The translations under genes were made by a program, and so were the position numbers. Shown here one piece after another: positions 1 to 15,515 of a DNA stretch of 16,788 bases. Below the pieces are notes generated by a model that was not told the origin of the DNA, made no database searches, and saw nothing but the letters and a program-made list of their open reading frames with translations. Position 1 is the first letter of the stretch. The number at the start of each line of letters is the position of its first letter. Source of the stretch: a virus (Duplodnaviria; Heunggongvirae; Uroviricota; Caudoviricetes); IMG/VR virus record IMGVR_UViG_2667528074_000009; one strand, written 5' to 3'.

Positions 1-105
1 AAGGTAAGTATTCTGCGCAATTTCCCCGACGGTCGCCGGTTCGGTGACGCTTAATTCATTAAACACCACTCTGGCGGTTTCGGTCATATCCTGCTGTTTT
101 AGCAT
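1..105 (-). CDS. Hypothetical protein, 5' end only (gene runs off the left edge)
   Basis: Minus-strand ATG at 105 followed by 35 sense codons (MLKQQDMTETARVVFNELSVTEPATVGEIAQNTYL) to the window edge. It sits downstream of Q and of a minus-strand terminator, where a first late gene would be expected. RBS is weak and no family is recognised. Confidence 0.3.
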   Translation of the reverse strand, partial: MLKQQDMTETARVVFNELSVTEPATVGEIAQNTYL

Positions 106-225
106 GCCTTTTTCCCTTTTCCGGTTAACGTGACATACCAATAACTCTTGTCTGAAAAGCCAGCAAGCTGAAAAACCGGTATTCGTAACCACCAGCGCGT
201 TTAACGCCCTGCACCACTTTTCGGG

Positions 226-253
226 CACAAAAAACCCGCTCGGCGGCGGGTTT
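226..253 (-). terminator. Intrinsic terminator (GC hairpin plus T6 on the minus strand)
   Basis: Stem CCCGC (235-239) pairs with GCGGG (246-250) around a 6-nt loop. On the minus strand the hairpin is followed by TTTTTTG; on the plus strand only by TTT. Possible tR'-like terminator downstream of Q. Confidence 0.5.
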
Positions 254-314
254 AAGCTGTGTGGCGAAGTAACCACTCTTAACAGCATATTTGATTTTTT
301 ACGATTGTAAACTG

Positions 315-343
315 TTGATTATTTATCTCTAATAAAAAATAAT
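315..343 (+). promoter_or_regulatory. Candidate sigma70-like promoter for the lipoprotein gene
   Basis: TTGATT (315-320), 17-bp spacer, AATAAT (338-343), within a strongly AT-rich stretch (290-378) just upstream of the ATG at 379. Hexamer match only. Confidence 0.25.
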
Positions 344-378
344 TGATCTAGGTATACCCTTAACAATGGATAAGATAC

Positions 379-825
379 ATGAATAAAATGACTGCATTAT
401 TACTTGGCGTAACTATCATTTCAGGTTGTGCATCTTCCGTACCATTGATAAAGAAAACTCAATCAGGAAAACCTGAAGGGATTTATCAAAATACGACAAA
501 AGATAAAGTCAAGGATGCCCTTGTGAATTACTGCAATAGTAAAGGATTGATAATTTACAACGCGGATAACAGCAGTGTTATATGTGGTAAAGAACTGGAA
601 GGTGGCTCTGCTGTTCTTGGACAAATGCTAATCGGGAATGCCTATTCAACAACCCCGGTATCAAAAGTCAGATTTACTATCGCTCAAGTTAATACCGATA
701 CAAAAGTATGGGCCGATATGTGGATGGAAACTCAAATGGCAATGGGGCAAGTACAACAAATGGCTATAACAGATAATGCAAGTAAAAACACTATCCAACA
801 ACGTCTTGATGAATTAAAACCTTAA
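379..825 (+). CDS. Putative lipoprotein (moron), 148 aa
   Basis: N-terminus MNKMTALLLGVTIISGC has a hydrophobic signal peptide ending in a lipobox-like ISGC with Cys at the cleavage position. The gene is visibly lower in GC than its neighbours and is oriented against the surrounding minus-strand phage genes. Confidence 0.65.
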   Translation: MNKMTALLLGVTIISGCASSVPLIKKTQSGKPEGIYQNTTKDKVKDALVNYCNSKGLIIYNADNSSVICGKELEGGSAVLGQMLIGNAYSTTPVSKVRFTIAQVNTDTKVWADMWMETQMAMGQVQQMAITDNASKNTIQQRLDELKP

Positions 826-844
826 GTCAATTAATTGAATAACA

Positions 845-866
845 TGGGGAGAATAAATCTACTCCC
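845..866. terminator. Hairpin between the convergent lipoprotein and Q genes
   Basis: GGGGAG (845-850) pairs with CTCCCC (861-866) around a 10-nt A-rich loop. No clean T-tract on either side, so terminator function is uncertain. Confidence 0.3.
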
Positions 867-912
867 CACACGTTAAGCTGATTTAATTCCCCCCCCCTCA
901 ATAAGAGGTCTT

Positions 913-1281
913 CTAACGATCCATCTCTAGCTCAACTTCTAACATCATCAACATGCCGTCAACTATCCCTTCAGCCTTTTGCAACAAACGGCCAACCCAG
1001 CAATCCGAACGACCATGCTTTCGTGCTAGCGCCATAAACGTCATGCCCGCCACGTAATAATCTACCAGCAAATCGTGTAATTCTTTGTTGTTCTTATTCA
1101 ACCGGGCCATACAGCCACAAATGATCATTGCGTCATCGTCGGAACATTGCGGACGCGATTTAACTTTCGACGGTATTAATCCTTTAAAGCCAGCAGCAAT
1201 CGATGGCCATGTGACATCCTCATGATTATTTGCCACCCACGCTCCCCAACGCTCAAGAACCATCTGAATATCACGTGCCAT
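913..1281 (-). CDS. Late-gene antitermination protein Q (short QuuD-like type)
   Basis: [25 protein letters not shown]...[16 protein letters not shown] matches the short Q antiterminator family from memory, including the Cys-rich motif. Sits directly after rusA as in DLP12-type nin regions. Start taken as ATG 1281 (AGGTGG RBS); the ORF track's earlier start at 1290 is GTG. Confidence 0.8.
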
Positions 1282-1642
1282 CGTTACCACCTGTAATTTC
1301 GTAAATCTTCACGCCCAGCCGACCACCAGGTACAAGCTGACTGCGCACAATATTAATTTCATCAAACTGCTCGTCGTCGATAAGCAGTCCCGCATGTGTC
1401 AGTGCATCCAGTGGCGCTTTCAGGATATTGTCCAGGTCTCGACGACGCTTATCCGGCGGCTCTGCGATAACCGTTATCGCCAGCCTTCCGGACAGGTTTA
1501 ATTTCAGCCTCTACTGGCGAACAATAAGTGCCACATCACGGCGATAACGCTTACCGGCTTCCGATATAAAATATGTGCTGCCACGGCGTCGCCAGTAGGT
1601 GTTCACCGTCGGCGGGTAAGGCAAAACAAACTCTATACGCAT
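1271..1642 (-). pseudogene. rusA: rusA Holliday-junction resolvase homolog interrupted by an in-frame amber codon
   Basis: Minus-strand frame from ATG 1642 reads MRIEFVLPYPPTVNTYWRRRGSTYFISEAGKRYRRDVALIVRQ, then TAG at 1513..1511 (codon 44), then continues stop-free as [79 protein letters not shown] to TGA 1273..1271. The DKRRRDLDN and LDDxQ segments are RusA signatures. Absent from the ORF track because the N-terminal piece is under 60 aa and the C-terminal piece has no Met. Confidence 0.75.
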
Positions 1643-1654
1643 CAGTAACCTCTT

Positions 1655-2704
1655 TTATCCGAGTACGCCAGTTGCAAAGGCGTGATCAAGAAAACGAAAA
1701 ATTAAATCAACCTGAGAACCATGCTTTTCTTCGAACGCCTGCGGATCTGCATGAAGTTCGTTGTGATGTTCCCGGCACAGCGGCAACGTAAAAATATCGT
1801 GGGCTTTTGTCCCCATTCCGCCCTGACCGTGACCAATCAGGTGATGTGGATCGTCTGCTGTCTTACCACAACACGTACACGGCTGTGTCTTTACCCAGCG
1901 CGTGTATTTCTCATTCACCCAGCGGCGACGTTTAGGCCGCTTCATGAATGATTCCGGTGACTCAGGATCAACGGCAATGCTGACCACCGTCTTTTCCTGT
2001 GGTGGGTTCTGTTGCTGGTGGGCTAGAGGCGGTAGCGCAATATTTTTTGTGCGCTGCTTCAGTATGCTGGTGGCTGTCTGCTCTCCCGGTACGATGTCGC
2101 TCTCGCGGTACACAGAGCGGATTTTTTCCGTACGTAATCCCAACGAACGACGTAATACTGCCTCCGGTAGCGCGTCCGCCACCTGATTGCAGACCGCCCA
2201 CCAGGATAACTCAGCCAGCGATAATTCCCGCTCTTGCGTACCATTCATTGCATGGCGTATGACGTCAATCATCCATGCTGTCAGATTTTGTTGAGCAAGC
2301 TGCCCGAGTGATTCGGATGTCTGGTCGCGCAGCTGGTTGTCGCAGTGCCAGCACAACACCATTGCGCCGGTACCGTAACGATGTATGACGGTTTCACTGT
2401 GGTGATAGTCTCCATGAGGCCACTGGCAGGATTTAACATGACGCAGGAGCCAGTCAGACAGTGCACCAGTGCCACCGGCAGCACGAATTACCCGCTCATT
2501 GCTGAAAAATGGCAGTAATGATTTATCTTCCGCCAGCGGCTGGCGAACGGCAGGGACGGCTCCGGACGGCAGACCGCGCATACTTTTCGGTTCCGGCTCC
2601 ACCAGCACTCGAGGGCTATGAAATACCTGCATGGATTCACGGCCCGGCTTTAGCACCACCAGTCCGAGTTCCGGTACCAGGGCAGGTCGAACTAATACCC
2701 GCAC
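1655..2704 (-). CDS. ydfU: DUF968-family protein (YdfU-like), 349 aa
   Basis: 349-aa ORF matching the length of the Qin YdfU protein, with a C-terminal Cys/His-rich region (CTCCGK...HHLIGHGQGG...CREHH). GTG start at 2704 preceded by GGAGG at 5-nt spacing. Confidence 0.75.
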   Translation of the reverse strand: MRVLVRPALVPELGLVVLKPGRESMQVFHSPRVLVEPEPKSMRGLPSGAVPAVRQPLAEDKSLLPFFSNERVIRAAGGTGALSDWLLRHVKSCQWPHGDYHHSETVIHRYGTGAMVLCWHCDNQLRDQTSESLGQLAQQNLTAWMIDVIRHAMNGTQERELSLAELSWWAVCNQVADALPEAVLRRSLGLRTEKIRSVYRESDIVPGEQTATSILKQRTKNIALPPLAHQQQNPPQEKTVVSIAVDPESPESFMKRPKRRRWVNEKYTRWVKTQPCTCCGKTADDPHHLIGHGQGGMGTKAHDIFTLPLCREHHNELHADPQAFEEKHGSQVDLIFRFLDHAFATGVLG

Positions 2705-2705
2705 G

Positions 2706-2978
2706 TTACCTCCAGATCCGTTGCTGGTATGTGCGGGACGGACGCGGTGGGCGTTCGGAATAAGGGAGTTTGACGTAGATTATCCAGAGACGATAATCGA
2801 GGCTGAGAGCTTTCTTAATCTCGTATCCGCGTCTGCGGTAGTTCTGAATCAGCCATTCGGCCTGTTCTTCAGTGCATGGGTCATGCTGGTACCAGTCATA
2901 TTTGAATGCATGAGAACGCCGCCCGTGCCTGCTGGCAAGGTCGGTATCAGAATTGTGATGTTTGGCATTGTGCGCCAT
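2706..2978 (-). CDS. Hypothetical protein (about 90 aa), positional equivalent of rem between hok and ydfU
   Basis: ATG at 2978 (MAHNAKHH...). The longer ORF-track start at 3089 would read through the terminator hairpin at 3055-3080. Stop TAA sits 1 nt before the DUF968 GTG. No family recognised. Confidence 0.4.
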   Translation of the reverse strand: MAHNAKHHNSDTDLASRHGRRSHAFKYDWYQHDPCTEEQAEWLIQNYRRRGYEIKKALSLDYRLWIIYVKLPYSERPPRPSRTYQQRIWR

Positions 2979-3054
2979 CGGTTTTCTCTGCTGGCGCAGC
3001 AGGTGCCAGTTGTTCAGGCTGGCCTGTGGATTGTAAACCAGAATACGTAAAACA

Positions 3055-3080
3055 AAAAACCCGCCGAAGCGGGTTTTCAT
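3055..3080. terminator. Bidirectional intrinsic terminator; copy 1 of a 21-bp direct repeat
   Basis: AAAAA-CCCGC-cgaa-GCGGG-TTTT; T-tract on plus, A-tract giving a T-run on minus. Lies 12 nt downstream of the Doc stop on the minus strand. The 21 bp at 3055-3075 are identical to 3904-3924. Confidence 0.6.
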
Positions 3081-3091
3081 TGGAAGCACCT

Positions 3092-3577
3092 TTAGTTTTG
3101 CTGTTCTATTTTAAGCTTGATAGTTTCATACAAAACAATAGTTGCGCCTGTTTTACATAATTCCCGGCTGTCATACGCACGAGACCAATAACACAACCAG
3201 TTCTCGAGATCTTCTCGAGTATAGGTTTTGCAGGCCAGTCCCTCTGCCATTTCCACGATTTCATCGCCTGGTGCTGTTAACTCATAGCCATTCAACAACA
3301 AGAAGACGTAACCAGCCATCATAGCTGTTCGTTTGTTCGCATTAGCAAACGGATGATTCTGAATCAGACTTTCAATCAATACCGATGCCAGTACAAACAT
3401 GTCATTGATCTGTTCATACCATCGAACCATGCTGGGACGGGCCTGAGAAGAACTTAAGTTATCTGGACTCAGAACACCAACGGGCTCATCTGGCGTCTGT
3501 AATTCAATTAGGGAACGATTGATTTCAACAAGATCATCAACCGTAAGGTAATGCACACCTTCAACAATCTCAGCCAT
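3092..3577 (-). CDS. doc: Doc/Fic-family toxin (death-on-curing-like), 161 aa
   Basis: Contains HPFANANKRTAM, matching the Doc variant of the Fic motif (P1 Doc has HIFNDANKRTAL). Preceded 20 nt upstream by a small antitoxin-sized gene. Confidence 0.8.
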   Translation of the reverse strand: MAEIVEGVHYLTVDDLVEINRSLIELQTPDEPVGVLSPDNLSSSQARPSMVRWYEQINDMFVLASVLIESLIQNHPFANANKRTAMMAGYVFLLLNGYELTAPGDEIVEMAEGLACKTYTREDLENWLCYWSRAYDSRELCKTGATIVLYETIKLKIEQQN

Positions 3578-3597
3578 GGAGTACAGCCCCCCATCTA

Positions 3598-3777
3598 TTA
3601 CACTTTAGAGAGGTCTTCCATGGCTTTCTCATAACGAGAAAAACCGAAATCAAAAGCATTTTTCACTTGTTCACGATGTGCGCAGTTTTCATCAATCGCT
3701 GGGCGAGGGACTGCCACAACGCTTTTATCGCGAGGCGGAATACTCAACCGCGTGTGTTTTTTGAGTGGGCAGCTCAT
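3598..3777 (-). CDS. Putative antitoxin cognate to the Doc-family toxin (59 aa)
   Basis: ATG at 3777 with AAGGA RBS about 9 nt upstream (MSCPLKKHTRLSIPPRDKSVVAVPRPAIDE...). Stop TAA 3600..3598 is 20 nt before the toxin start. Family not recognised (not Phd-like by eye). Confidence 0.55.
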   Translation of the reverse strand: MSCPLKKHTRLSIPPRDKSVVAVPRPAIDENCAHREQVKNAFDFGFSRYEKAMEDLSKV

Positions 3778-3903
3778 ACTAATGAGTCCTTTTGTTTTCC
3801 GATTATTGGCAAAGCCATGCACCAAATTTGATGCAAAATAGATCTGTTTGAGATCCTTAGGATAGTCTAATGGTAGCTAAAATTACAACCTCATAATGCG
3901 ACG

Positions 3904-3928
3904 AAAAACCCGCCGAAGCGGGTTAAGT
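3904..3928. terminator. Intrinsic terminator hairpin; copy 2 of the 21-bp direct repeat; likely 3' end of the hok mRNA
   Basis: AAAAACCCGCCGAAGCGGGTT at 3904-3924, identical to 3055-3075. Lies about 70 nt downstream of the hok stop on the minus strand. Confidence 0.55.
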
Positions 3929-3992
3929 GCGGGTGCGTTGAGGATGCCTGACACATCAGAGGTGGCGAGGGATTTCTCCCCCGCCGGGTCTC

Positions 3993-4148
3993 TTACTCCT
4001 CAGGTTCGTAAGCTGTGAAGACAGCGACCTCCGTCTGGCCGGTTCGGATTCGTACCTCGCAGAGGTCTTTCCTCGTTACCAGTGCCGTCACTATGACGGT
4101 TAAACAGATGACGATCAGGGCGATTAACATCGCCTTTTGCTGCTTCAT
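3993..4148 (-). CDS. hokD: Hok/Gef-family type I toxin (HokD/RelF-like), 51 aa
   Basis: Translation MKQQKAMLIALIVICLTVIVTALVTRKDLCEVRIRTGQTEVAVFTAYEPEE matches the HokD/RelF sequence as I recall it. GGAG RBS upstream of ATG 4148; stop TAA 3995..3993. Missing from the ORF track because it is under 60 aa. Confidence 0.9.
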   Translation of the reverse strand: MKQQKAMLIALIVICLTVIVTALVTRKDLCEVRIRTGQTEVAVFTAYEPEE

Positions 4149-4206
4149 AGCCTGCTTCTCCTTGACCTTTCGGTCCGTAAGAGGCTAACCTATGTTTGTG
4201 TGGCAT
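4000..4206 (-). CDS. mok: mok-like overlapping reading frame (68 codons)
   Basis: A 68-codon ORF starts upstream of hok and overlaps it almost entirely in another frame, the arrangement of mok in hok/mok/sok loci. Coding status inferred from position only. Confidence 0.45.
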   Translation of the reverse strand: MPHKHRLASYGPKGQGEAGYEAAKGDVNRPDRHLFNRHSDGTGNEERPLRGTNPNRPDGGRCLHSLRT

Positions 4207-4260
4207 AGATTGGGCCTCAGATTAATGTTAAGCGTCCTGCAAGACGCGTAATGTTAACTG
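4185..4260 (+). ncRNA. sok: Possible Sok-like antisense RNA (approximate, unverified)
   Basis: In hok/mok/sok loci Sok is antisense to the mok translation-initiation region, which here is around 4200. A TTGACC -35-like hexamer lies at 4162-4167 and an imperfect hairpin at 4233-4248. Boundaries are guesses. Confidence 0.2.
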
Positions 4261-4486
4261 GGGCTTTTCTCTGTCTGCCTTACAGTGGCATGCCCGAGGC
4301 AGACAGCCTCAAGCACCCGCAGCAATCTTACCGACACCGATAAGAAAACGCTATTTTTTATTGCCAGCACCATCTATCCAGGCTAATTTATCTGCGTCAG
4401 AACGGCGCAATGCGCTCGCCTGAGATACGTTTACTTGTCATTGGTAACAACAGATAACGGCAATTGTTGTTTCTGTTTTGTTTCCT

Positions 4487-4520
4487 TCAAAAACCCCGGA
4501 CCATCAAGCCGGGGTTTTTG
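4487..4520. terminator. Bidirectional intrinsic terminator
   Basis: CAAAAA-CCCCGG-accatcaag-CCGGGG-TTTTT; perfect 6-bp GC stem with A-run on one side and T-run on the other. Ends the minus-strand operon 4525-5758. Confidence 0.7.
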
Positions 4521-4524
4521 TTTG

Positions 4525-4608
4525 TTATCCCCAGCGGCAAATCGAATACACCATCAGCGCCACCGCCATCGCAATTCCTACCGTTGTGAATGCTTCAGGC
4601 CAGGTCAT
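4525..4608 (-). CDS. Small hydrophobic peptide (27 aa), translationally coupled to the upstream gene
   Basis: MTWPEAFTTVGIAMAVALMVYSICRWG; its ATG overlaps the upstream TGA (ATGA at 4605-4608); followed directly by the terminator. One predicted transmembrane helix. Absent from the ORF track. Confidence 0.4.
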   Translation of the reverse strand: MTWPEAFTTVGIAMAVALMVYSICRWG

Positions 4609-5168
4609 CGCAAAACATCCTCCGCACTTATCAGTTCGTTCCGCTTCAGGTAGTCCATCGCCTTATCCGGCAATTTACAGTCCGGCTTCACTTTCTTCAG
4701 TTGACTGACCAATTGCTTAACCAGCATGGTTAATTCGTCAGTCTGTTTGCCTGGTACTGGTGGATTGTCGGTTGTACCATGACTGGCAGTACAGTTGGCA
4801 CTTCCTCCCTTCTCCTCCCGCAGCGGTTCAGGCAACGCATCCAGTGAAGCTTTCACAAACCACGCTGCCTGTACTATAACGCCATGAATCCAGCGCAAAT
4901 CAGCATCGCGATCGTTCTTTTTCATCTTTTCACCACTTAAAGCCTGGCTTATGTGGCTGCGAACCAGGTCTTCATGTAACTCCTTCGCATCCTCAATGGT
5001 GAAACCACCAGGCAGGCGAGCCGGAGTTACCGGAGAGTTGCCAGCCTTACGCATGGCCATTTCCACGATTTCAACCATATCTCCTGGTGGAATTTTACAA
5101 AGTTGCCCAATACATTTCTGCTGCCTGGCATATTCGAGAATGTGTTCCAGTTTGGTTCGATTAATCAT
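4605..5168 (-). CDS. Hypothetical phage protein (187 aa)
   Basis: Clean ORF with ATG start; its ATG overlaps the upstream stop (TAATG at 5166-5170). No family recognised. Confidence 0.55.
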   Translation of the reverse strand: MINRTKLEHILEYARQQKCIGQLCKIPPGDMVEIVEMAMRKAGNSPVTPARLPGGFTIEDAKELHEDLVRSHISQALSGEKMKKNDRDADLRWIHGVIVQAAWFVKASLDALPEPLREEKGGSANCTASHGTTDNPPVPGKQTDELTMLVKQLVSQLKKVKPDCKLPDKAMDYLKRNELISAEDVLR

Positions 5169-5758
5169 TATTTATCTCCCTTAAGCATGGCGGCGCGGCA
5201 GGCGTTCCAGCCATCAGCATATGTTTCAGTTACACCGTCGAGATGGCAGGTAAGCAAATCCATTTCATCCGGCACTATCAGTACCGGCTGGACGGTGACA
5301 TTGGCAAAGGCTGCACGCAACCCGGCCTTAATTTCCTCTACCTCATCAGCACCTGGCGATGAATCTGACAGTGCATGATGGAATGCGTAAGCCATGTCGT
5401 CGCTTACTGCTATCGGCTCTGCTTCCAGTGATACCAGTGCAATCTGCGCCCTGACCCACGCCACCCGCGCCGGATTCACATGGCACATGTTGTTCCCTTT
5501 TTCTTCATAGTAATGCCCTTTACTCTCGTTAAATGGCAACACCTCATTCAGCCCGGCACTTCTGAAATCAGCGTGTAATTGTTCCAGTGCCGCTTCGCTG
5601 GAGGCACCGATTGATGTGAGATAATCGAAAAGATTGGCGCATAAACCATAATTTCGAGAAAACACCCCACCTGGTTTCGCCCCATTACTCAGCCACAAAT
5701 CATAAGCAATATAAAACCCGTAAAGCTGTTGTCTGATATTTTCTTTGATGTCTTGCAT
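5168..5758 (-). CDS. Hypothetical phage protein (196 aa)
   Basis: ATG at 5758 just downstream of a short hairpin; acidic protein; no family recognised. First gene of a three-gene coupled unit. Confidence 0.55.
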   Translation of the reverse strand: MQDIKENIRQQLYGFYIAYDLWLSNGAKPGGVFSRNYGLCANLFDYLTSIGASSEAALEQLHADFRSAGLNEVLPFNESKGHYYEEKGNNMCHVNPARVAWVRAQIALVSLEAEPIAVSDDMAYAFHHALSDSSPGADEVEEIKAGLRAAFANVTVQPVLIVPDEMDLLTCHLDGVTETYADGWNACRAAMLKGDK

Positions 5759-5767
5759 TATTTATTA

Positions 5768-5783
5768 CCGCCCTTTCGGGCGG
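5768..5783. promoter_or_regulatory. Short GC hairpin between two minus-strand genes
   Basis: CCGCCC-tttc-GGGCGG, a perfect 6-bp stem, with no T-run on the minus strand, so probably not a full terminator. Confidence 0.3.
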
Positions 5784-5850
5784 CCTCCCGATGTTTTGAG
5801 GGTGCAGAAATCCCTCCGGTTAAGGATTATATTTTCAATAATAATGTTGA

Positions 5851-6207
5851 TTATTCTGGGCTAAGTTTTGTCGCCCTGCGTATTCGCGCTTTCACATTAC
5901 GCTCAATCTGAATTAGCTTTTCTATATTTTTACGTCTTTCCCGTTCCTCCTGACGCAATTGTTTTACATCATCTGCCAGTCTGGTTTCTCTTTTCGCCAC
6001 AGAGAGCATCCAGTCAAATGGCTCCACAACTGCACCGCAGATTTTACAACGGACATGACGCTCTTTTTCATCAACCCTGACAGAGGCGTGATGGCAATAT
6101 GGTTTTTCCGATGGCTCATAAAGAAAATTAACCTGATTACGTGGGTCATCCTCTTTTACCGGAAATAAAACAATATTACTTAACTCATCTTCTGGTTTTA
6201 TTTCCAC
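5851..6207 (-). CDS. Hypothetical protein with zinc-ribbon-like motif and basic C-terminal helix (about 118 aa)
   Basis: GTG start at 6207 with GGAGGGAGG RBS at 5-nt spacing embedded in the upstream gene's last codons; CHHASVRVDEKERHVRCKICG motif; C-terminal K/R/E-rich helix. The longer ORF-track start would overlap the upstream gene by about 75 nt. Confidence 0.5.
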   Translation of the reverse strand: MEIKPEDELSNIVLFPVKEDDPRNQVNFLYEPSEKPYCHHASVRVDEKERHVRCKICGAVVEPFDWMLSVAKRETRLADDVKQLRQEERERRKNIEKLIQIERNVKARIRRATKLSPE

Positions 6208-6208
6208 G

Positions 6209-6538
6209 TTACCTCCCTCCGATACGAATACCTGCAACACGCAGTGCATGCTCCAAATCAGCCAGATAAAGCCAGCGCCCATGCTCTTTGGGCATCATGA
6301 CATATTGCTCATCGGCATTTATCGGATGACCCCTTCGAAGGTCATAGCAAGTCGGTAAATGCACTGCCCTTGCTTCCAGCTCTGCAATGCGTTTATCTCT
6401 GGCTTCCAGTTCGTCCAGTAACGCCAGCACAACCTGCGGTGTGACTTTCATGCGAAACGCCAGCAGTTTCTGAGGTGTGGACACTGTTTTTATTGCCTCT
6501 GCCACATCACGCAACGCCTGGTTGTTAATCTGATTCAC
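6209..6538 (-). CDS. Hypothetical phage protein, possibly Ead/Ea22-like (109 aa)
   Basis: N-terminal QALRDVAEA followed by a coiled-coil LLDELEARDKRIAELEAR segment, resembling Ead/Ea22-like prophage proteins from memory. GTG start overlaps the upstream stop (GTGA). Confidence 0.45.
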   Translation of the reverse strand: MNQINNQALRDVAEAIKTVSTPQKLLAFRMKVTPQVVLALLDELEARDKRIAELEARAVHLPTCYDLRRGHPINADEQYVMMPKEHGRWLYLADLEHALRVAGIRIGGR

Positions 6539-6849
6539 TGCGTCACCTCACGATTCCTCAACCAGATACAAACCGGTCCATCCTCGGTGTCATGAATGGA
6601 GCCAATAAACCAGCCCTCACCCTCTGGTCGTTCAGGTTCCCATGCGGAAATATCGGGACCATCTGCATCCGGGTTAAAATCATCTTCATCCATACTGCGA
6701 ATAGTCCACTGAAGATTATTTGCCTTCATCCAGGCGTTAAATTCTTCCGTCGAAATATACTCCCGGCCATCACAAAATTTTTCATATTCAGGATGCGTCC
6801 AGCAGCCATATTCATCACGTTCTACCGGCAGTTCTTTGATTTCAATCAT
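6535..6849 (-). CDS. Hypothetical acidic phage protein (104 aa)
   Basis: ATG at 6849 with GGAG RBS 9 nt upstream (MIEIKELPVERDEYGCWTHPEYEKF...). The upstream small ORF stops 13 nt before this ATG. Confidence 0.5.
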   Translation of the reverse strand: MIEIKELPVERDEYGCWTHPEYEKFCDGREYISTEEFNAWMKANNLQWTIRSMDEDDFNPDADGPDISAWEPERPEGEGWFIGSIHDTEDGPVCIWLRNREVTQ

Positions 6850-6862
6850 AACATTAACTCCA

Positions 6863-7045
6863 TTAAGATAATGCAAAACAAATTAACCACACCACGACAA
6901 CCGATGCTATTAACACCCTGATTGCAAACAGCGGTCTGATATGTCGAAAAGGATTTTCCCAGATAATAAAAGCCGCTGCCAGAAATGCACTGATAAGTAA
7001 AACAATAACAAACAGCTCAATTTTGATTATCCAGAACATATTCAC
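6863..7045 (-). CDS. Small hydrophobic membrane protein (about 58-60 aa)
   Basis: MNMFWIIKIELFVIVLLISAFLAAAFIIWENPF..., with two predicted transmembrane segments. Its start overlaps the DUF4406 stop and its stop leaves a 13-nt RBS gap before the next gene. Confidence 0.4.
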   Translation of the reverse strand: MNMFWIIKIELFVIVLLISAFLAAAFIIWENPFRHIRPLFAIRVLIASVVVVWLICFALS

Positions 7046-7332
7046 TGCATCGCCTTCTGTAAAATAACCGCATGCCCCAGCTTCTCCGCCAGCGCCAGTT
7101 CTGCCTTAGCACCCGCCGACCGCTGCCAGCCATTCAGCATGTAAATCGCATCCACGCAACGTATCATCGCCATGCAGATATCCATGTACTGCGACTGAGT
7201 CAGTCCGTCCGGAAGTACTGCCGAGTTTAAGACGGTATGCCCTTCCCGTTTCAGTTCCTCTTCCGCTTTGTGAAACGCCTCACGGTTGAAGTTTTCATGG
7301 CCAGTCATCGGCCCTGCGACATAAACCTTCAT
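7042..7332 (-). CDS. DUF4406-like protein (nucleoside 2-deoxyribosyltransferase-like fold), 96 aa
   Basis: N-terminal MKVYVAGPMTG...FN signature typical of DUF4406 prophage proteins (from memory). ATGA overlap with the upstream gene at 7329-7332. Confidence 0.55.
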   Translation of the reverse strand: MKVYVAGPMTGHENFNREAFHKAEEELKREGHTVLNSAVLPDGLTQSQYMDICMAMIRCVDAIYMLNGWQRSAGAKAELALAEKLGHAVILQKAMQ

Positions 7333-7763
7333 ATCGTTTTTACTGTCCCTTTATTGTCCCTGTAAAACATCAAAACCCGCTGCATAACATCGCTATTCCG
7401 GCACTCACGACAGATTATGTTCTGACGCCTGTCATAGCGGCGTATTTCTCCATCTGGTAATGAATAAATCAGGTCTGGGTCGCTCTTTTTCTTCGCTCTG
7501 TTTTTCTTCACTCCCCCTTTCGCGATCTTTTGGTGAGCCCTTTCCCAGTCCCTGTGCGCCTGCTCAGACGGAAATACCCCGTAGTCAGAGTTGTACACCT
7601 CACCGCTGGCAGCAAGCTCTCTGGATAAGCGACCGGTAGTGACTCTGCTGACACCCGTTTTATCTGCCAACTGCTGATGTGTTTCTCGCCCACTCTGGCG
7701 TACGAGCTCCACAATGCGCGCCTTCACTTCTTCCCGTTGTTCGTGTGTGAAAGGTTTTGCCAT
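7329..7763 (-). CDS. Hypothetical helix-turn-helix protein (144 aa)
   Basis: ATG at 7763 with GGAGG RBS 5 nt upstream; HTH-like segment HQQLADKTGVSRVTTGRLSRELA; very basic central region (KKNRAKKK). The ORF-track start at 7778 is TTG and abuts the upstream stop. Confidence 0.5.
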   Translation of the reverse strand: MAKPFTHEQREEVKARIVELVRQSGRETHQQLADKTGVSRVTTGRLSRELAASGEVYNSDYGVFPSEQAHRDWERAHQKIAKGGVKKNRAKKKSDPDLIYSLPDGEIRRYDRRQNIICRECRNSDVMQRVLMFYRDNKGTVKTI

Positions 7764-7778
7764 AAGCGCCTCCGGCAA

Positions 7779-8573
7779 TCACTTTTCTGATGCAACACGG
7801 CGGGAAGAATCAGTCATCTGCCGGAAAATATCCCGGTGCTTGTTCAGCTCCCGCAGCGCGGCGCAGACACGTTCCCACTTCCGGATATGACTTTTTGCCC
7901 GGCGCAGTTCACGGTTTGCCATATGTAGCGATGGCAGCATTACATAGTCGGTATGTTTTTCGGTGAACAATGGCAGTGACTGCACAATATCCGCCACCGT
8001 TTCTGTTTTAATTTCTTCCTGTGTTGCCGCTTCCTGTACCGGTAATGCAACACCTGCTGGCTGAGGAAAGGCTTTACCATGGGTTTTCGCTACCGGTGCA
8101 ACTTTCGGCTCTGCTGGTAAATCTTCCCCGGTTTTTTTTACCAGCATCCACTTACACCCCTTCCCCTGTCCCAGCTTAATCGCCATGCCATCGCGGCAAA
8201 GCTTTTCCATCGCAGAAACCAGCGACCTGACGCAATCAGCACGCCCCACAGCAATTGCAATCTCAGCGGTGGTCATTGCCCCACCATGAGCAAGTGTGGA
8301 CAGGATGTCGCAGCGATTCAGTGGCTCACGGTCTTTTCTGCTGACCACCATGCGGGATTTTCTTTCCGCTTTACACACCGGCACTGTTTTTTCTTTCACG
8401 CCACTTTGTCGTTCTGAAACAGACCAGTAACCATTAACCGACACAACTTCTCCCTGCTCTTCGTACTCCCGCAACATTTTAATCGCCTCAGCCGGTGCAA
8501 TGCCCAAACTGGTAGCAAGCTCAGTGCACGTCACCTTTTGCATCGCTTTTAACGTATCAATCAACGTTTCCAT
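7779..8573 (-). CDS. Replication-associated protein with winged-helix-like segments (264 aa), in the position of lambda P
   Basis: Lies directly downstream of the O-like initiator. Two segments resemble winged-helix DNA-binding domains (CTELATSLGIAPAEAIKMLREYEEQGEV and MTTAEIAIAVGRADCVRSLVSAMEKLCRDGMAI). No helicase-loader ATPase motif seen. GGGAG RBS 9 nt upstream. Confidence 0.5.
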   Translation of the reverse strand: METLIDTLKAMQKVTCTELATSLGIAPAEAIKMLREYEEQGEVVSVNGYWSVSERQSGVKEKTVPVCKAERKSRMVVSRKDREPLNRCDILSTLAHGGAMTTAEIAIAVGRADCVRSLVSAMEKLCRDGMAIKLGQGKGCKWMLVKKTGEDLPAEPKVAPVAKTHGKAFPQPAGVALPVQEAATQEEIKTETVADIVQSLPLFTEKHTDYVMLPSLHMANRELRRAKSHIRKWERVCAALRELNKHRDIFRQMTDSSRRVASEK

Positions 8574-8618
8574 TAAAATTTCTCCCGTTAAAAATTATTT
8601 ACCAATCTCAAACAAAAC

Positions 8619-9581
8619 TTATCCCCTGAACCCTGGTGGAATTTCGGTGTCCGGTTCAGAAATATGATTCACACAACGCTGCGCGGGACCACGCCACAGT
8701 CGAATAACCAGTTCATCCCATTTTTCACGGAGTTTTTCCGGGCTCTTGATGTTTTTTATCCAGAACGGATCCCGTTGTGCCCGACTGAACATTTCGCAAA
8801 TTTGTCTGTGACTTCTTCCATCCAGCATCCGCATTGTGCGCACATCATTGGCCCACGTAGTCCAGTTGGGCTCTTTCGGTCGCGTGATCTCACCATCATC
8901 GCTCGCAGCCTGCTCGTACAGGTTTAAAACCCGCCCCCAGATCCACTGTGCACACGTCAAATCCTCACGGGTTCCCCACTGGCGTTTTTTTACACTGAAC
9001 ACAACTGCGTCAGGATGGCGGGTTAAAAACTCCTGTTCAGCCGTCTGCGGGTCCGGTTGCGAAGCTTCCGGACGAGAAGATCTTTTATCTGACGGATCAG
9101 GTTTTAATACTGACGGATCGGGGCCAACCATCGCCCCCCTAACCGGCTGTTTTTTATCAACGGTTGATCCATCAAAATTTGACGGGTCAACCGTTGAGGG
9201 GGCAATATTTGACGGGTCAACGGTTGGCTGGTCATTTTTTGCCGGGTTAATTTTTCTTTTCGGTTTATATGCCTCACGCGCCGCCGCCGCTGCTGCTTCG
9301 AGTTTTTCCACATTAAGACGGTAGATATTGCTTTCATTACGCCCACCGACCTTACGTTCCTCCTTCGTCAGCCAGCCGTTCTTTTCCAGTTCAGCTATCG
9401 CAGCTTTAACCGTTGATTCACTCTTTGCCCCAATCTGACGACGAATGGTCTCCACTGCAGGCCATGACACACCTTCGTCATTGCTGTAGTCTGCAAGGCG
9501 AGCCATTACTGCCACTCTGGATAAGATCATGCCGGTGAAGGCACACCCTTCCCAGACAAGACCATGAAGCTTGCTGCTCAT
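8619..9581 (-). CDS. Phage replication initiator (lambda O-like), 320 aa, with internal repeat linker
   Basis: N-terminal winged-helix region (ARLADYSNDEGVSWPAVETIRRQIGAKSESTVKAAIAELEKNGWL); central Pro/Asp/Ser-rich linker with STVDPSN and PDPS repeats encoded by DNA iterons; position between the regulators and the rest of the early-right operon. Confidence 0.75.
   Translation of the reverse strand: MSSKLHGLVWEGCAFTGMILSRVAVMARLADYSNDEGVSWPAVETIRRQIGAKSESTVKAAIAELEKNGWLTKEERKVGGRNESNIYRLNVEKLEAAAAAAREAYKPKRKINPAKNDQPTVDPSNIAPSTVDPSNFDGSTVDKKQPVRGAMVGPDPSVLKPDPSDKRSSRPEASQPDPQTAEQEFLTRHPDAVVFSVKKRQWGTREDLTCAQWIWGRVLNLYEQAASDDGEITRPKEPNWTTWANDVRTMRMLDGRSHRQICEMFSRAQRDPFWIKNIKSPEKLREKWDELVIRLWRGPAQRCVNHISEPDTEIPPGFRG
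9090..9270. repeat. Putative replication origin: four direct iterons (core TGACGGRTC) plus AT-rich tract, inside the O-like gene
   Basis: TGACGGATC at 9090 and 9111; TTTGACGGGTCAACCGTTGA at 9178-9197 and TTTGACGGGTCAACGGTTGG at 9208-9227 (18/20 identical, 30 bp apart); near-palindrome ATCAACGGTTGAT at 9156-9168; then a T-rich tract at 9232-9270. Same layout as ori-lambda within gene O. Confidence 0.6.
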
Positions 9582-9604
9582 AAAAAACCCCGAACACCGT
9601 GCTT

Positions 9605-10030
9605 TTAGTGCATCACCACGGCATTTCCCGCCGGGCCACCACGATTCATCTGATCGAACAGAACGATCGCTGATGCAACGAAATCATCAATATCTTTCAC
9701 CAGCCGTTCCTTCGTCTCTACCAACTCCCGAAAATAAGCGGAACTGTGGCTGCGCATTCGGGCCACCAGCGGAGGCGGCATCGCTTTTTCGATCGCTGGT
9801 AACAACGCCTGAATTTTTTTAACCGCATCAGGAGTGTCTTTCTCCACCCAGCGGAAAATTTTCTGGGTGTTACGGCCCAGGGCTTCAGGATGGCTGTCGT
9901 CGTACAGTTCCGGGAACGTCATACCCAGTTCGAAATACGCTTTGGTAATTTTCGCAGCCGGTACTTTCTCGCCGTCCGGATGCGCCCAGGCATTCATCGC
10001 CATGCGGATGTGTTCATGCTTGATTTTCAT
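9605..10030 (-). CDS. YdaT-like (CII-analog) regulatory protein, 141 aa
   Basis: Begins MKIKHEHI..., length and position immediately downstream of the Cro-like gene match the Rac YdaT family. AGGAG RBS 8 nt upstream of ATG 10030; overlaps the Cro-like 3' end by 17 nt. Family call from memory. Confidence 0.55.
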   Translation of the reverse strand: MKIKHEHIRMAMNAWAHPDGEKVPAAKITKAYFELGMTFPELYDDSHPEALGRNTQKIFRWVEKDTPDAVKKIQALLPAIEKAMPPPLVARMRSHSSAYFRELVETKERLVKDIDDFVASAIVLFDQMNRGGPAGNAVVMH

Positions 10031-10295
10031 GAATCAAGCTCCTGGAAAGTGGTTGTGTTAACGTTTGGGTATCTTCCAGCTCGGGCCAAATGTTCATCCA
10101 ATCAAAAGGCCGTAGTTGCTGACGTGTAACTTCACCATTACTAGCTCGCTCAATAAGGACACATAACGATGCCCCTAACACTTGACCTTTACTCAATGCT
10201 TTTCTTAGATAACCGATGCTAGTACCACACTCACATGCAAACATACGCTGTTCATCTGACGAAATAGAATTGAGAAATATTCTTAATTCTTCCAT
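10014..10295 (-). CDS. Cro-like HTH regulator (YdaS/DicC-like position), 93 aa
   Basis: Divergent from the repressor gene across an operator-bearing region; AAGGAG RBS 5-6 nt upstream of ATG 10295; HTH-like segment CECGTSIGYLRKALSKGQ. Confidence 0.6.
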   Translation of the reverse strand: MEELRIFLNSISSDEQRMFACECGTSIGYLRKALSKGQVLGASLCVLIERASNGEVTRQQLRPFDWMNIWPELEDTQTLTQPLSRSLIHENQA

Positions 10296-10321
10296 AACTA
10301 CTCCTTAGTAAACACAGCAAA

Positions 10322-10389
10322 GAATACCTACAGGTAAACAAAAGTCAATACCCGTGGGTTGTTTACCTTGTGGTAATCGCCTCTATTAT
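10322..10389. promoter_or_regulatory. OR-like operator/promoter region: three TACC-N4-GGTA half-palindromes with divergent promoters
   Basis: Sites TACCTACAGGTA (10326-10337), TACCCGTGGGTT (10350-10361), TACCTTGTGGTA (10365-10376). Leftward promoter candidate: -35 TTGACT (complement of 10344-10349), -10 TATTCT (complement of 10322-10327). Rightward candidate: -35 TTGTTT (10360-10365), -10 TATTAT (10384-10389). Confidence 0.55.
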
Positions 10390-10395
10390 TTACCT

Positions 10396-10815
10396 ATGGA
10401 CAAATATGAATTTAGACGAAAGCAACTCATCAAAATTCGTGATGAGAAATGCGATGGTAAAGCGGTTAACGTGGCCAGAAAAATCGGCCGCGAGCCTTCT
10501 TATGTATCAAGAATGTTGTACCCAGAGGGGAAAAAAGGGAAAAAACGGATCGCTGATGATATGGTGGAGATTATCGAAGAATCCTTTGGGTTACCCAGGG
10601 GATGGATGGATGGTATCGTTTCATCATCAACGAACACAACCTCCAATTATGAAACAAGGGTTCTAACACCACGACAACGTATTTTTTTAGATCTCTTGGA
10701 CGAACTGCCAGAAAGCGAAGCGGATAACCTATTAAAAACTCTTGAAGAGAAAAAACAATATTACAATATGATCTACGAAGAAATCAGCAAAAAGAAAGCA
10801 CGAAACGCATCATAG
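10396..10815 (+). CDS. CI-type repressor (DicA-like), 139 aa, probably leaderless
   Basis: N-terminal HTH (GKAVNVARKIGREPSYVSRML); C-terminal LTPRQRIFLDLLDELPESEADNLL resembles the DicA C-terminus as recalled. ATG 10396 lies about 7 nt after the candidate -10 with no RBS. The ORF-track start at 10354 falls inside the operator/promoter. Confidence 0.7.
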   Translation: MDKYEFRRKQLIKIRDEKCDGKAVNVARKIGREPSYVSRMLYPEGKKGKKRIADDMVEIIEESFGLPRGWMDGIVSSSTNTTSNYETRVLTPRQRIFLDLLDELPESEADNLLKTLEEKKQYYNMIYEEISKKKARNAS

Positions 10816-10847
10816 CCCACCAAACAACCTACACCTGTCAAAACGCA

Positions 10848-10884
10848 TCAAAAAATTTACCTGTGGGTATTTACTTTTTAGATA
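10848..10884. promoter_or_regulatory. OL-like operator pair upstream of the dicB-type operon
   Basis: TACCTGTGGGTA (10848-10859) and TACCTATAGGTA (10873-10884), same consensus as the OR sites, 25 bp apart, at the head of the plus-strand ydfA...int transcription unit. Confidence 0.5.
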
Positions 10885-11078
10885 CCTATAGGTATTCTCT
10901 CTTTCATGCCAACCCACCCCGCCCCACAGAACGCAGGGCAATACTTCGAGTTACCAGGCAGTGGTCAGGGGGTAAGTAGCCAGCCCGAGGCGTATGAACA
11001 TGACGGCAGGGTTCAACTTTAACTATTGCAGCAGGTTTTTGTTCCGCTACCCCGGCGTTAAGGGGAAATGAGGTCAAC

Positions 11079-11234
11079 ATGGATACTATCGATCTTGGCA
11101 ACAACGAATCTCTGGTGTACGGCGTGTTTCCCAACCAGGACGGCACGTTCACCGCTATGACGTATACCAAAAGCAAAACGTTTAAAACCGAATCTGGCGC
11201 GCGTCGCTGGCTGGAAAGAAACTCAGGTGAGTGA
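11079..11234 (+). CDS. ydfA: YdfA-like small protein (51 aa)
   Basis: MDTIDLGNNESLVYGVFPNQDGTFTAMTYTKSKTFKTESGARRWLERNSGE; GAGG RBS 6 nt upstream; length and sequence match Qin YdfA as recalled. Not in the ORF track (under 60 aa). Confidence 0.7.
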   Translation: MDTIDLGNNESLVYGVFPNQDGTFTAMTYTKSKTFKTESGARRWLERNSGE

Positions 11235-11235
11235 T

Positions 11236-11364
11236 ATGGATTTCGACACAATCATGGAAAAGGCTTACGAAGAATACTTCGAATGCCTTGCCGAAGGCGA
11301 AGAAGCTCTCAGCTTCAGTGAGTTTAAACAGGCACTTTCCAGTTCGACAAAATCTAACGGCTGA
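11236..11364 (+). CDS. ydfB: YdfB-like small protein (42 aa)
   Basis: MDFDTIMEKAYEEYFECLAEGEEALSFSEFKQALSSSTKSNG; starts 1 nt after the ydfA stop; length matches Qin YdfB. Not in the ORF track. Confidence 0.7.
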   Translation: MDFDTIMEKAYEEYFECLAEGEEALSFSEFKQALSSSTKSNG

Positions 11365-11393
11365 TAAGCGAAGCGGCACAGTGAGGAATCAGT

Positions 11394-11612
11394 ATGCAGA
11401 AACCAGAACCCGTCATCATCGCTCCAGGTTATACCGATGATGAAATTTACGAATGGATGATCAAGAAAGTTAAGGCGGTACAGGATCTGAAATGGGCCTG
11501 TGACTCCAGAGAACTGCAGGTCAAAAACCTGTCAGAACTGGATAAGGAAATTGCCGGTCTTACAGAGGCGGCATCATTGAACGTAGCCAAAGTGGCTGCA
11601 CACCTGCGTTAA
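11394..11612 (+). CDS. ydfC: YdfC-like protein (72 aa)
   Basis: 72-aa ORF with GAGG RBS 8 nt upstream; correct position and length for ydfC in the dicA-ydfABC-dicF-dicB operon. Confidence 0.65.
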   Translation: MQKPEPVIIAPGYTDDEIYEWMIKKVKAVQDLKWACDSRELQVKNLSELDKEIAGLTEAASLNVAKVAAHLR

Positions 11613-11631
11613 TATCAAGCCAACGAGATTA

Positions 11632-11814
11632 ATGATGGAAGAGACAGAACTTAAACACGTTATTGCCTTGCTTCTGGAAGATGCAAAACGCTTACATGAA
11701 CTGGAGCCCAATGCAGGCACAGAGGCCCGCATTTGGTTAGCAAAAAAATGCCTGGATAGTAAAAGTTTTCAGAAAGAAATAACAATCAGTTTTGAGAATT
11801 CGCCTCGTCTATGA
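11632..11814 (+). CDS. Hypothetical small protein (60 aa) within an insertion between ydfC and dicF
   Basis: Helical-looking ORF MMEETELKHVIALLLEDAKRLHELEPNAGTEARIWLAKK...; weak RBS; overlaps the 3' end of a convergent minus-strand ORF by 29 nt. Confidence 0.35.
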   Translation: MMEETELKHVIALLLEDAKRLHELEPNAGTEARIWLAKKCLDSKSFQKEITISFENSPRL

Positions 11815-12016
11815 ATTGTTGGATCAGATTTGCTAATTCAGTGGCATGTTTATCACCTGTGCTTTTTAAAGCATCTGTTACACAATCTGAGCGAAGTTCT
11901 GGCGGAAGTCTTGTTGCCATCAAAGCTATCGCGAGCTTAATGGCCCTTAATTCTGCATTTATTCCATCATGGGATAAATCATTATTAATAGTGGTTTTTA
12001 TTGTGTTCAAAATCAC
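11786..12016 (-). CDS. Hypothetical small protein (about 74-76 aa), antisense to the dicBF operon, in an AT-rich insertion
   Basis: Perfect AGGAGG on the minus strand (complement of 12017-12022). It abuts the GTG at 12016, so the true start is more likely TTG at 12010 (6-nt spacing). Product ...INNDLSHDGINAELRAIKLAIALMATRLPPELRSDCVTDALKSTGDKHATELANLIQQFIDEANSQN; visibly low GC. Confidence 0.4.
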   Translation of the reverse strand: MILNTIKTTINNDLSHDGINAELRAIKLAIALMATRLPPELRSDCVTDALKSTGDKHATELANLIQQFIDEANSQN

Positions 12017-12333
12017 CCTCCTGAGGGTTGTTAATTAAGGAGTTCTCCACGGGTCAGGTGGAGTGCGTGCGCCGGACACGGGTGAGCATCCGGCACTGAC
12101 AGTTTACTGAAAGGATATATCCCTGAAAAGTCAGGGCATAACGCGAAAGCGCACGGCGAAGTTCGTCTCACTGTACGGTGTCGTTAAATTTAATTCGACC
12201 GTGCGCTTCCGGTTGTGGCACTCCGCGAAATGGCGCGGCGGTAAGTATGGCGGGGTTTCTCCGTTCCTCGCAAATGCCCACCGGGTTGTCAGGTTGACCA
12301 TACGCTTAAGTGACAACCCCGCTGCAACAACCC

Positions 12334-12390
12334 ATGTTGATTACCTTTTGGCGGCATCAGTTTCATTGCTGGCTGATGTCCGCCCTTTTT
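12334..12390 (+). ncRNA. dicF: DicF-like small regulatory RNA
   Basis: Lies 185 nt upstream of dicB. Conserved GGCGGCATCAGTTT core and terminator hairpin GGCGGCATCAG/CTGATGtCCGCC followed by TTTTT; downstream sequence AAAGTGAATTTTGTGATG...GGTGAATGCGGCT.AGCGCACGCG matches the K-12 dicF-dicB spacer as recalled. The 5' end is approximate. Confidence 0.55.
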
Positions 12391-12575
12391 AAAGTGAATT
12401 TTGTGATGCGGTGAATGCGGCTCAGCGCACGCGGAACAGTTAAAAAAGTGATCGGTACTCCGTATTTGTTTTATGGAGTTGGTTTCCCTGTATTCCGGCG
12501 TTAATTGTTAACTGGTTAACGTCACCTGGAGGCACCAGGCACCGCATCACAAAATTCATTGTTGAGGACGCGATA

Positions 12576-15501: not shown

Positions 15502-15515
15502 TGTTCAACCCTGAT

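Follow-up and report, generated by a model that had tools for sequence, protein, structure and literature searches.

The hok/sok (parB) locus of plasmid R1 is a plasmid-borne system with a role in post-segregational killing, and its mRNA has served as the model for the regulation of such loci. In that model, the nascent hok RNA keeps its translational activator element (tac) in a metastable hairpin, and the full-length RNA is then locked by pairing of its two ends, tac with the fold-back inhibitory element (fbi), with the anti-Shine-Dalgarno box ucb lying over the mok Shine-Dalgarno (SD) sequence (PMC9841398). Trimming of the 3' end, a processing known from the R1 hok mRNA, leads to pairing of tac with ucb, by which the mok SD is freed, a stem of SDmok with dcb is formed, and both translation and binding of Sok become possible (PMC9841398). 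The translation of Hok requires that mok be translated at least as far as the hok SD, and translation of mok beyond the hok start is dispensable (PMC9841398). In the R1 numbering the start of mok is A116 and that of hok is A174, so that the two start codons are 58 nt apart and out of frame, and Mok consists of 70 amino acids (PMC9841398).

A prophage-borne relative, hokW-mokW-sokW of the Stx phage 933W and the Sakai prophage Sp5, belongs to the same clade as the locus described here, with about 91% nucleotide identity over the mRNA. The hokW-sokW pair of Sp5 is a toxin-antitoxin system of type I in which toxicity was shown and the antitoxic activity of Sok partly needed RNase III and Hfq (PMC8621323). 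The sokW RNA was detected in Sp5 by northern blot, mitomycin C lowered sokW and raised HokW in a way that depends on RecA, and the loss of hokW-sokW halved the release of Sp5 phage (PMC8621323).

The chromosomal hokC/mokC/sokC (gef) locus of E. coli is a member of the same family, in which mokC and hokC are read in one frame and end at a common stop codon, and the R1-type mok frame is stopped after 4 codons. The K-12 copy of hokC is disrupted by IS186 nearby. As far as the work of Pedersen and Gerdes (1999) is cited in PMC12214031, K-12 hok loci were inactivated by IS elements (in hokA, hokC and hokE) or through rearrangements of the genome that removed canonical components. Enrichment of hok genes in prophages has also been reported (bioRxiv 10.1101/2025.08.07.668861).

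A hok locus in a Rac/lambda-like prophage

The element carrying the locus is a Rac/lambda-like prophage, analysed here as a window of 16,788 nt, by which we mean the whole stretch of DNA under study. The genes were found in the order integrase (15763 onward), RecE-like exonuclease (13042-15501), YdaS/YdaT-type immunity region, replication genes, DUF977, hok, a Doc-family toxin, DUF968 and antiterminator Q (913-1290). The hok locus is thus located between the replication genes and Q and has the same orientation as the early-right genes, and a terminator-like hairpin (4489-4514) precedes it. The locus of 933W differs in this respect, as it lies near the end of the late region; it shares with the window a conserved 27-aa ORF just upstream. 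No PHROG family was found for this 27-aa ORF, and a search of the PDB sequences gave no match for the 59-aa ORF upstream of doc.

Comparison of the whole window with complete E. coli genomes detected no close overall match, the best one covering 65% at 89% identity. When a 541-nt query around the hok locus (3880-4420) was compared with 5426 complete E. coli genomes, 4718 of them contained a match. Among the full-length matches in these genomes, the best were 95-97% identical and annotated as 'type I toxin-antitoxin system toxin HokD', and phage loci annotated as hok/mok/sok, including hokW/mokW/sokW of 933W, were about 91-96% identical to the region. The elements tac, ucb, SDmok, sokT (the Sok target), dcb, hok and fbi follow one another in the same order in the window and in 933W, although the loop sequence of sokT and the terminator differ. 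The architecture and the Rfam family are also the same as those of R1, from which the locus differs in the sequence of the Sok target and in a diverged Hok protein and mRNA (mean column identity of 80% in a four-sequence alignment dominated by three hokD-type members).

The hok toxin gene is an ATG-started ORF of 51 amino acids on the minus strand (3993-4148) with the product MKQQKAMLIALIVICLTVIVTALVTRKDLCEVRIRTGQTEVAVFTAYEPEE. The coding sequence was identical to that of K-12 hokD in 156 of 156 nt, and the protein is that of K-12 HokD/RelF, as had been proposed when the sequence was first read. This full identity also spoke against a decayed gene, which divergence at conserved Hok residues had been expected to reveal. 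Residues 1-44 were identical in HokW of 933W, which ends in VDYESEK instead of TAYEPEE. The product matched Pfam HOK_GEF (PF01848) with 82.9 bits against a cut-off of 22, covering model positions 1-42 of 42, and phrog_251 with 114.7 bits; the NCBIfam Hok models matched it below their strict cut-offs (48.5 versus 73). By these matches the 51-aa ORF belongs to the Hok/Gef toxins, which have approximately 50 amino acids, an N-terminal transmembrane helix and conserved cysteines. The SD sequence read 8 nt 5' of the hok ATG, AAGGAG (4157-4162, minus strand), showed no variation in 101 related loci and is also kept in K-12 hokD. Codon 47, UAC followed by G (4007-4010), is a TadA editing motif, and editing of the hokD mRNA has been reported in K-12 (PMC12214031).

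From these comparisons and the RNA analyses described below, the locus is very likely a hok/mok/sok cassette of the type I toxin-antitoxin kind that is complete, belongs to the hokD/hokW clade of prophages and works by the R1-type mechanism. By analogy to hokW-sokW, its likely role is to promote lysis and the release of phage upon induction, to make the prophage more stable, or both. The same cassette with the same RNA mechanism might instead serve mainly to exclude phages (abortive infection) or simply as an addiction module of the prophage, which we regard as possible but rather unlikely. The sole prophage copy of the clade to have been tested directly showed a lysis and release phenotype (PMC8621323), no hok enrichment was seen beside defence systems (bioRxiv 10.1101/2025.08.07.668861), and PADLOC returned no match for Hok or most of its neighbours, apart from one marginal match among the latter. 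On induction, antiterminated read-through could both add hok sense transcripts and disturb the convergent Sok promoter, an idea that would be in line with the mitomycin C data on hokW. The hok locus represents one more toxin-antitoxin module in the prophage, beside the Doc-family toxin.

The hok mRNA and its predicted conformational switch

The Rfam scan of the whole window gave exactly one match, RF01794, at 4146-4318 on the minus strand with 109.4 bits (E 1.6e-24; gathering score 59), spanning the full model (1-157). Alignment to hok/sok covariance models had been suggested as a check of the locus by the sequence-only reading, and this match bore the suggestion out. Although RF01794 is named 'sok', it matches the hok-coding strand, and the last three positions of the model are the hok AUG. 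It was found on the hok strand in every control as well, with 118.3 bits for K-12 hokC, 113.5 bits for hokW of phage 933W and 87.2 bits for an R1-type plasmid, and the annotated Sok genes (sokC of K-12 and sokW of 933W) sit on the opposite strand. Because the annotated loci are matched on the hok strand, the match establishes a canonical hok mRNA leader, with Sok encoded inside it as an antisense RNA. The score in the window was in the same range as those of the bona fide hokC, hokW and R1-type hok.

The full-length hok mRNA was predicted to be about 415 nt long (3904-4318, minus strand), when its 5' end is placed at position 1 of the Rfam model and its 3' end at the U-run of the terminator. 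A putative -10 hexamer, TAAGAT (4325-4330, minus strand), lies 6 nt 5' of the presumed +1 (4318), and a weak -35 hexamer, TAGCGT (4348-4353), is found beyond a 17-nt spacer with an A-rich tract 5' of it. The -10 position was conserved as TAGAAT or TAAGAT across the 101 related loci. The intrinsic terminator recognised by folding, CCCGC-UUCG-GCGGG followed by UUUUU (3904-3922, minus strand), is common to K-12 hokD. These assignments were made by homology and folding, as a simple consensus scan of 3850-4450 called neither promoters nor terminators and missed even the obvious hok terminator. The functional unit spans about 4330 to 3904. The upstream region and the terminator that the earlier reading had ascribed to the locus were thus both real, but the unit is wider than the range of 3993-4330 given there, since fbi and the terminator are located at 3904-3943.

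The structured sequence upstream of hok was likewise confirmed, by the RF01794 match and by the fold of the whole mRNA, with slightly shifted coordinates, and it exceeds chance by far. The perfect 9-bp stem placed at 4279-4305 is actually a 10-bp perfect stem with arms at 4271-4280 and 4297-4306 (minus strand), sitting within a 21-nt imperfect inverted repeat (4260-4280 and 4297-4317). The imperfect palindromes described at 4221-4258 correspond to one long imperfect hairpin with limits of 4218-4260 (minus strand), of which the opposite strand is the Sok terminator.

The elements of the R1 switch were located in this mRNA. The tac element, GGGUGCUUGAGG, forms the 5' end (4307-4318, minus strand), is unchanged in all 101 loci, and has three alternative partners. 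One is fbi, CCUCAACGCACCC (3931-3943, minus strand), whose complementarity to tac is interrupted by a single bulged C and which pairs with tac in the minimum free energy (MFE) structure of the full-length RNA. Another is the metastable local partner at 4288-4300 (minus strand) in the MFE structure of the 5' domain, and the third is ucb, AAAGCCCC (4260-4267, minus strand), in the Rfam consensus; ucb is predicted to cover the mok SD as long as the mRNA is full-length and to pair with tac once it is truncated. The dcb element, AGCCUC (4181-4186, minus strand), pairs with the mok SD region (4214-4218) in the truncated conformer, and this SDmok/dcb stem extends the Sok target hairpin (4187-4211, minus strand), which contains the mok start codon. 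A GC-rich stable hairpin of 9 bp, GGCGGGGGA-GAAA-UCCCUCGCC (3964-3985, minus strand), is predicted from R1 (PMC9841398) to protect the 3' end of the truncated (processed) hok mRNA.

Folding of the full-length mRNA, as an RNA of 416 nt, gave an MFE of -178.8 kcal/mol with a z-score of -7.85. In this structure tac and fbi formed a 12-bp helix and GCC/CAG of the ucb region was paired with the GAGG region, in agreement with the upstream fold-back elements that had been anticipated from the letters. The 5' 173 nt alone folded into the tac/4288-4300 hairpin. When the tac/ucb pairing was forced by constrained folding, the cost was 12.4 kcal/mol in the full-length RNA but fell to 0.9 kcal/mol for an RNA with its end at 3957 and to 1.8 kcal/mol for one with its end at 3964, and in these truncated RNAs it yielded the SDmok/dcb stem (mRNA positions 101-105/134-138). 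The removal of fbi was thus calculated to shift the balance by approximately 11 kcal/mol to the open form. The unconstrained MFE structures of the truncated mRNA and of the 5' domain contained the metastable tac hairpin and not the tac/ucb stem, the latter becoming near-optimal in constrained folding solely after the loss of fbi. These thermodynamic predictions support the switch published for R1.

The conservation of the pairing was examined by deriving the structure from the window itself and applying it to 101 unique relatives. Standard pairs were kept in 95.8% of the base-pair cells, compared with approximately 40% in slid-partner controls. The tac/fbi helix was paired in all 101 relatives, with G-C to G-U as the sole changes; since tac and fbi hardly vary, this helix offers little covariation within the clade. 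Within the clade the covariation evidence is modest, and most of it was contributed by the inner stem, the long hairpin, the terminator and the 3' hairpin at 3964-3985, for which compensatory changes were seen in relatives (helix 15). Beyond the clade, our reading of the alignment with R1 indicated a compensatory change that keeps the tac/fbi pairing, the U4-A pair in the window being C-G in R1.

The mechanism proposed for the locus is modelled on that of R1, and the sequence and folding of the locus support it. A weak promoter would produce the hok mRNA of about 415 nt, in which the 5' tac would sit in a local hairpin during synthesis. In the finished mRNA, tac would pair with fbi near the 3' end and ucb would cover the mok ribosome-binding site, permitting neither translation nor Sok binding. 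Slow trimming of the 3' end would strip fbi, upon which tac would move to ucb, the mok start would be freed and the Sok target hairpin would form. The unstable Sok RNA of approximately 70 nt, transcribed from the opposite strand, would pair with this target, block the translation of mok and trigger decay. When Sok drops, ribosomes would translate mok through the hok start, and the Hok thus made would depolarise the inner membrane.

Sok, mok and comparison with K-12 hokD

The putative Sok antisense RNA was mapped, by homology to annotated sokW of phage 933W, to a stretch of 71 nt on the plus strand (4198-4268), corresponding to an RNA of about 70 nt. A plus-strand antisense RNA had been predicted near 4190-4260, and the mapped homologue, as judged from its sequence, is consistent with that prediction. 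Its predicted fold consisted of a 14-nt single-stranded 5' tail, a long terminator hairpin and a CUUUUCU tail, with an energy of -28.1 kcal/mol and a z-score of -4.24. The hexamers read as its putative promoter on the plus strand, TTGACC (-35, 4162-4167) and TAACCT (-10, 4186-4191), are separated by an 18-nt spacer. They were below the threshold of the simple scan, and the Sok -10 as well as the hok -35 are weak matches.

The mok frame on the minus strand comprises 68 codons and a stop (4000-4206), and its ATG (4204-4206) lies inside the Sok target hairpin. The SD sequence read 8 nt 5' of this ATG, GAGG (4215-4218, minus strand), aligned with the SD sequences of R1 and 933W and was paired with ucb in the full-length fold. 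Both the start (4206) and the SD were homologous to those of the annotated mokW of phage 933W. The frame runs through the SD and start of hok out of frame with it, the distance between the two ATG codons being 58 nt as in R1. The identification of the overlapping 68-codon frame as mok was thus upheld, and the lack of a mok translation signal, which had been named as a finding that would speak for a relF-like hok, was not observed, as the GAGG sequence is in place. The 68-aa Mok product had no match in Pfam or NCBIfam, as expected.

In 933W, a distance of 57 nt separates the upstream ATG from that of hok, and owing to this in-frame spacing MokW consists of Hok preceded by a fused leader of 19 aa (70 aa), whereas the 58-nt spacing makes mok of the window a separate frame. 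E. coli M8, K-12 mokC/hokC and an R1-type IncFII plasmid also had the 57-nt spacing, with Mok as an N-terminally extended Hok. An in-frame mok for R1 itself, as suggested by the 57 nt of the R1-type IncFII plasmid and the common stop codon of mokC/hokC, was ruled out by the R1 numbering (PMC9841398). Both states of mok, in frame and out of frame, occur in the hok family.

The spacing was then counted in 117 hokD/W-type loci from genomes and IMG/VR. The distance between the ATG codons was 57 nt, with mok in frame with hok, in 100 of the 117 loci, and 56 nt in 13, in which a mok of 19 codons ends in a TGA (in ATGA) overlapping the hok ATG. The remaining four, including the window, had the out-of-frame distance of 58 nt. 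The extra base behind the 58-nt spacing is T4165, part of an alternative allele of a small hairpin with a GAAA loop, and this base also changes the Sok -35 from TTGCCT to TTGACC. The simplest reading would be that the frame of mok is irrelevant.

The rarity of the 58-nt out-of-frame arrangement (4 of 117 clade members), together with promoter hexamers under the scan threshold, would agree with a locus that is structurally intact but functionally silent or decaying, in which weak promoters or the mok-hok spacing block the production of Hok. Several chromosomal hok loci have been reported in such a state, and those tested earlier gave no post-segregational killing (bioRxiv 10.1101/2025.08.07.668861). 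We nevertheless consider this improbable for the present locus. R1 itself has the 58-nt out-of-frame spacing and does not depend on mok past the hok start (PMC9841398), the sister locus hokW-sokW is active (PMC8621323), none of the known elements is missing and all of them pair in the expected way, and the hok ORF is uninterrupted and encodes the HokD sequence of K-12. The cassette is a real element that probably works.

The K-12 hokD gene (relF) in the cryptic prophage Qin has the same type of neighbourhood as the locus of the window, where a DUF968 gene and, after it, antiterminator Q follow downstream, and beyond the identical coding sequence there is also essential identity in the 3' UTR, in fbi and in the terminator. 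The homology, however, goes no further upstream than the hok SD and ends with the terminator, as the leader, mok and sok are replaced in K-12 by the end of relBE, with relE upstream. In the window, relBE is absent upstream of hok, the upstream genes being the 27-aa ORF and that of a 187-aa phage protein. The Qin hokD region gave no RF01794 match and showed no homology to the canonical 170-nt leader of the window, so that the contrast with K-12 relBE-hokD drawn from the sequence alone held, in accord with the inactivation of K-12 hok loci described in PMC12214031. A relF-like orphan hok as in Qin, having neither sok nor mok and preceded by unrelated hairpins, would account for the near identity of the coding sequence and 3' UTR to K-12 hokD, but is effectively refuted by the RF01794 leader with 109.4 bits, by its lack in Qin, and by the 170 nt 5' of hok that align base for base with the region of 933W annotated as mokW/sokW. 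With K-12 hokD alignable only from SD to terminator and the leader unmatched in Qin, K-12 hokD is a remnant and the locus of the window the intact form.

Variability of the Sok target and the mok frame

The sokT hairpin was the most variable segment in the clade. The per-site diversity among the 101 unique loci was 0.278 in this hairpin, compared with 0.029 in the hok coding sequence and 0.034 from dcb to the hok ATG. These loci carried 22 sokT haplotypes, and that of the window was absent from the 100 others. Two hok copies within one E. coli genome (L004 and L006) carried different sokT haplotypes. As far as sequence comparison can tell, the variability fits selection for Sok/target pairs that do not cross-react.

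We tentatively propose a joint view, in which the sokT hairpin is under diversifying selection and the mok frame drifts freely among the three coupling geometries, while regarding the two together as somewhat doubtful. If this is true, co-resident prophages would carry mutually orthogonal Sok specificities, and only the transit of ribosomes through mok would matter, not its frame. Neither the diversification of sokT nor the drift of the mok frame seems to have been surveyed in the literature; the 2025-26 census of Hok set mok and Sok aside by its own statement (bioRxiv 10.1101/2025.08.07.668861).

The locus itself is already known, as it belongs to a well-known family and to a clade with an experimentally studied member (hokW-sokW); it is ordinary, and hundreds of E. 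coli genomes already have it annotated. The observation and the interpretation made from the sequence alone were correct, apart from small slips in coordinates and too narrow a range. Since ORF callers often overlook small toxin genes of type I and the antisense RNAs that belong to them, flagging this locus is a useful annotation. The locus also shows what an intact ancestor of the truncated K-12 hokD looks like, and the hypervariability of sokT together with the changes of the mok frame could feed a comparative study of the number of hok/sok copies that a single genome can hold without cross-talk.

Variation in the Sok target and in mok-hok spacing

The alignment of 101 unique related loci (A3) located the greatest variation in the hairpin at 4187-4211, which comprises the Sok target and the mok start. 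The per-site variability of this hairpin was 0.278 when compared to 0.029 in the hok coding sequence, an approximately 10-fold difference. The hairpin was represented by 22 haplotypes among the 101 loci, that of the window being a singleton, and copies co-resident in one genome differed in their Sok target haplotypes.

The spacing region between mok and hok (4148-4206) was compared across the fetched loci L001-L133. The distance between the two ATG codons differed even between near-identical hokD/W loci, 117 in total. The spacing was 57 nt, in frame, in 100 of these, and 56 nt in 13, where it generates a 19-codon ORF with the TGA overlapping the hok ATG. The remaining four loci, including the window, had an out-of-frame spacing of 58 nt, an arrangement that the window has in common with R1. 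All loci lacking the allele with the extra base T4165 were in frame; loci carrying it displayed all three spacing states.

The editing site and the strand of Sok

The TadA A-to-I editing motif, UAC followed by G at codon 47 of hok (4007-4010, minus strand), is unchanged in the window relative to K-12 hokD, the mRNA of which is reportedly edited at approximately 6% at this site, resulting in Tyr-to-Cys recoding (PMC12214031). The Rfam model RF01794, although named 'sok antitoxin', actually represents the sense leader of hok mRNA, its last positions being the hok AUG. In the loci checked (L135, L001 and L134), the model matched the hok-coding strand, and sokC and sokW, where annotated, are encoded on the other strand; reading the strand off this model would therefore mis-orient Sok.

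Genes flanking the cassette

The directly downstream neighbour of hok is a gene for a toxin of the Doc/Fic death-on-curing family (3092-3577, minus strand; TIGR01550, 128.4 bits; Pfam Fic, 46 bits). Ahead of this gene lies a 59-aa ORF (3598-3777, minus strand) that matched phrog_2208, and for which nothing was found in Pfam, NCBIfam or PDB; this ORF presumably encodes the antitoxin of the Doc-family toxin, belonging to an uncharacterised family. The hok cassette, together with the adjacent toxin and its presumed antitoxin, therefore places a type I beside a type II toxin-antitoxin module, whereas the neighbour of hokD in K-12 Qin is relBE.

Immediately 5' of the hok promoter lies a hydrophobic 27-aa ORF, MTWPEAFTTVGIAMAVALMVYSICRWG (4525-4608, minus strand), the ATG of which overlaps the stop codon of a 187-aa ORF as ATGA, and which is followed by a terminator-like hairpin (4489-4514). 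Protein-level conservation of the ORF was seen in 56 of the 135 fetched loci, and an unannotated counterpart, MTWPEAFANVGTVMAVVLVVYSICRWR, exists in phage 933W. The PHROG search found no family for it. Its product may be a small membrane protein that has escaped recognition and accompanies the hok module.

Relatives of the locus and of the window

Exact hokD-type matches among genome contigs (L005, L008, L009 and L013) came from a 431-bp contig of an assembly labelled Xanthomonas pisi, an assembly labelled Candidatus Scatousia, and MAGs labelled Haemophilus and Veillonella parvula; among phages, 'Actinobacillus phage vB_Apl-pPE4' contains a match of 96% identity (H27). These matches appear to stem from contamination, from mis-binning or from E. 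coli-type prophage DNA under a wrong label. Across the whole window (1-16788), coverage by any one of the complete E. coli genomes in RefSeq did not exceed 65%, at approximately 89% identity. Close relatives exist for each of its separate modules, and the window is a typical mosaic lambdoid/Rac-like prophage.
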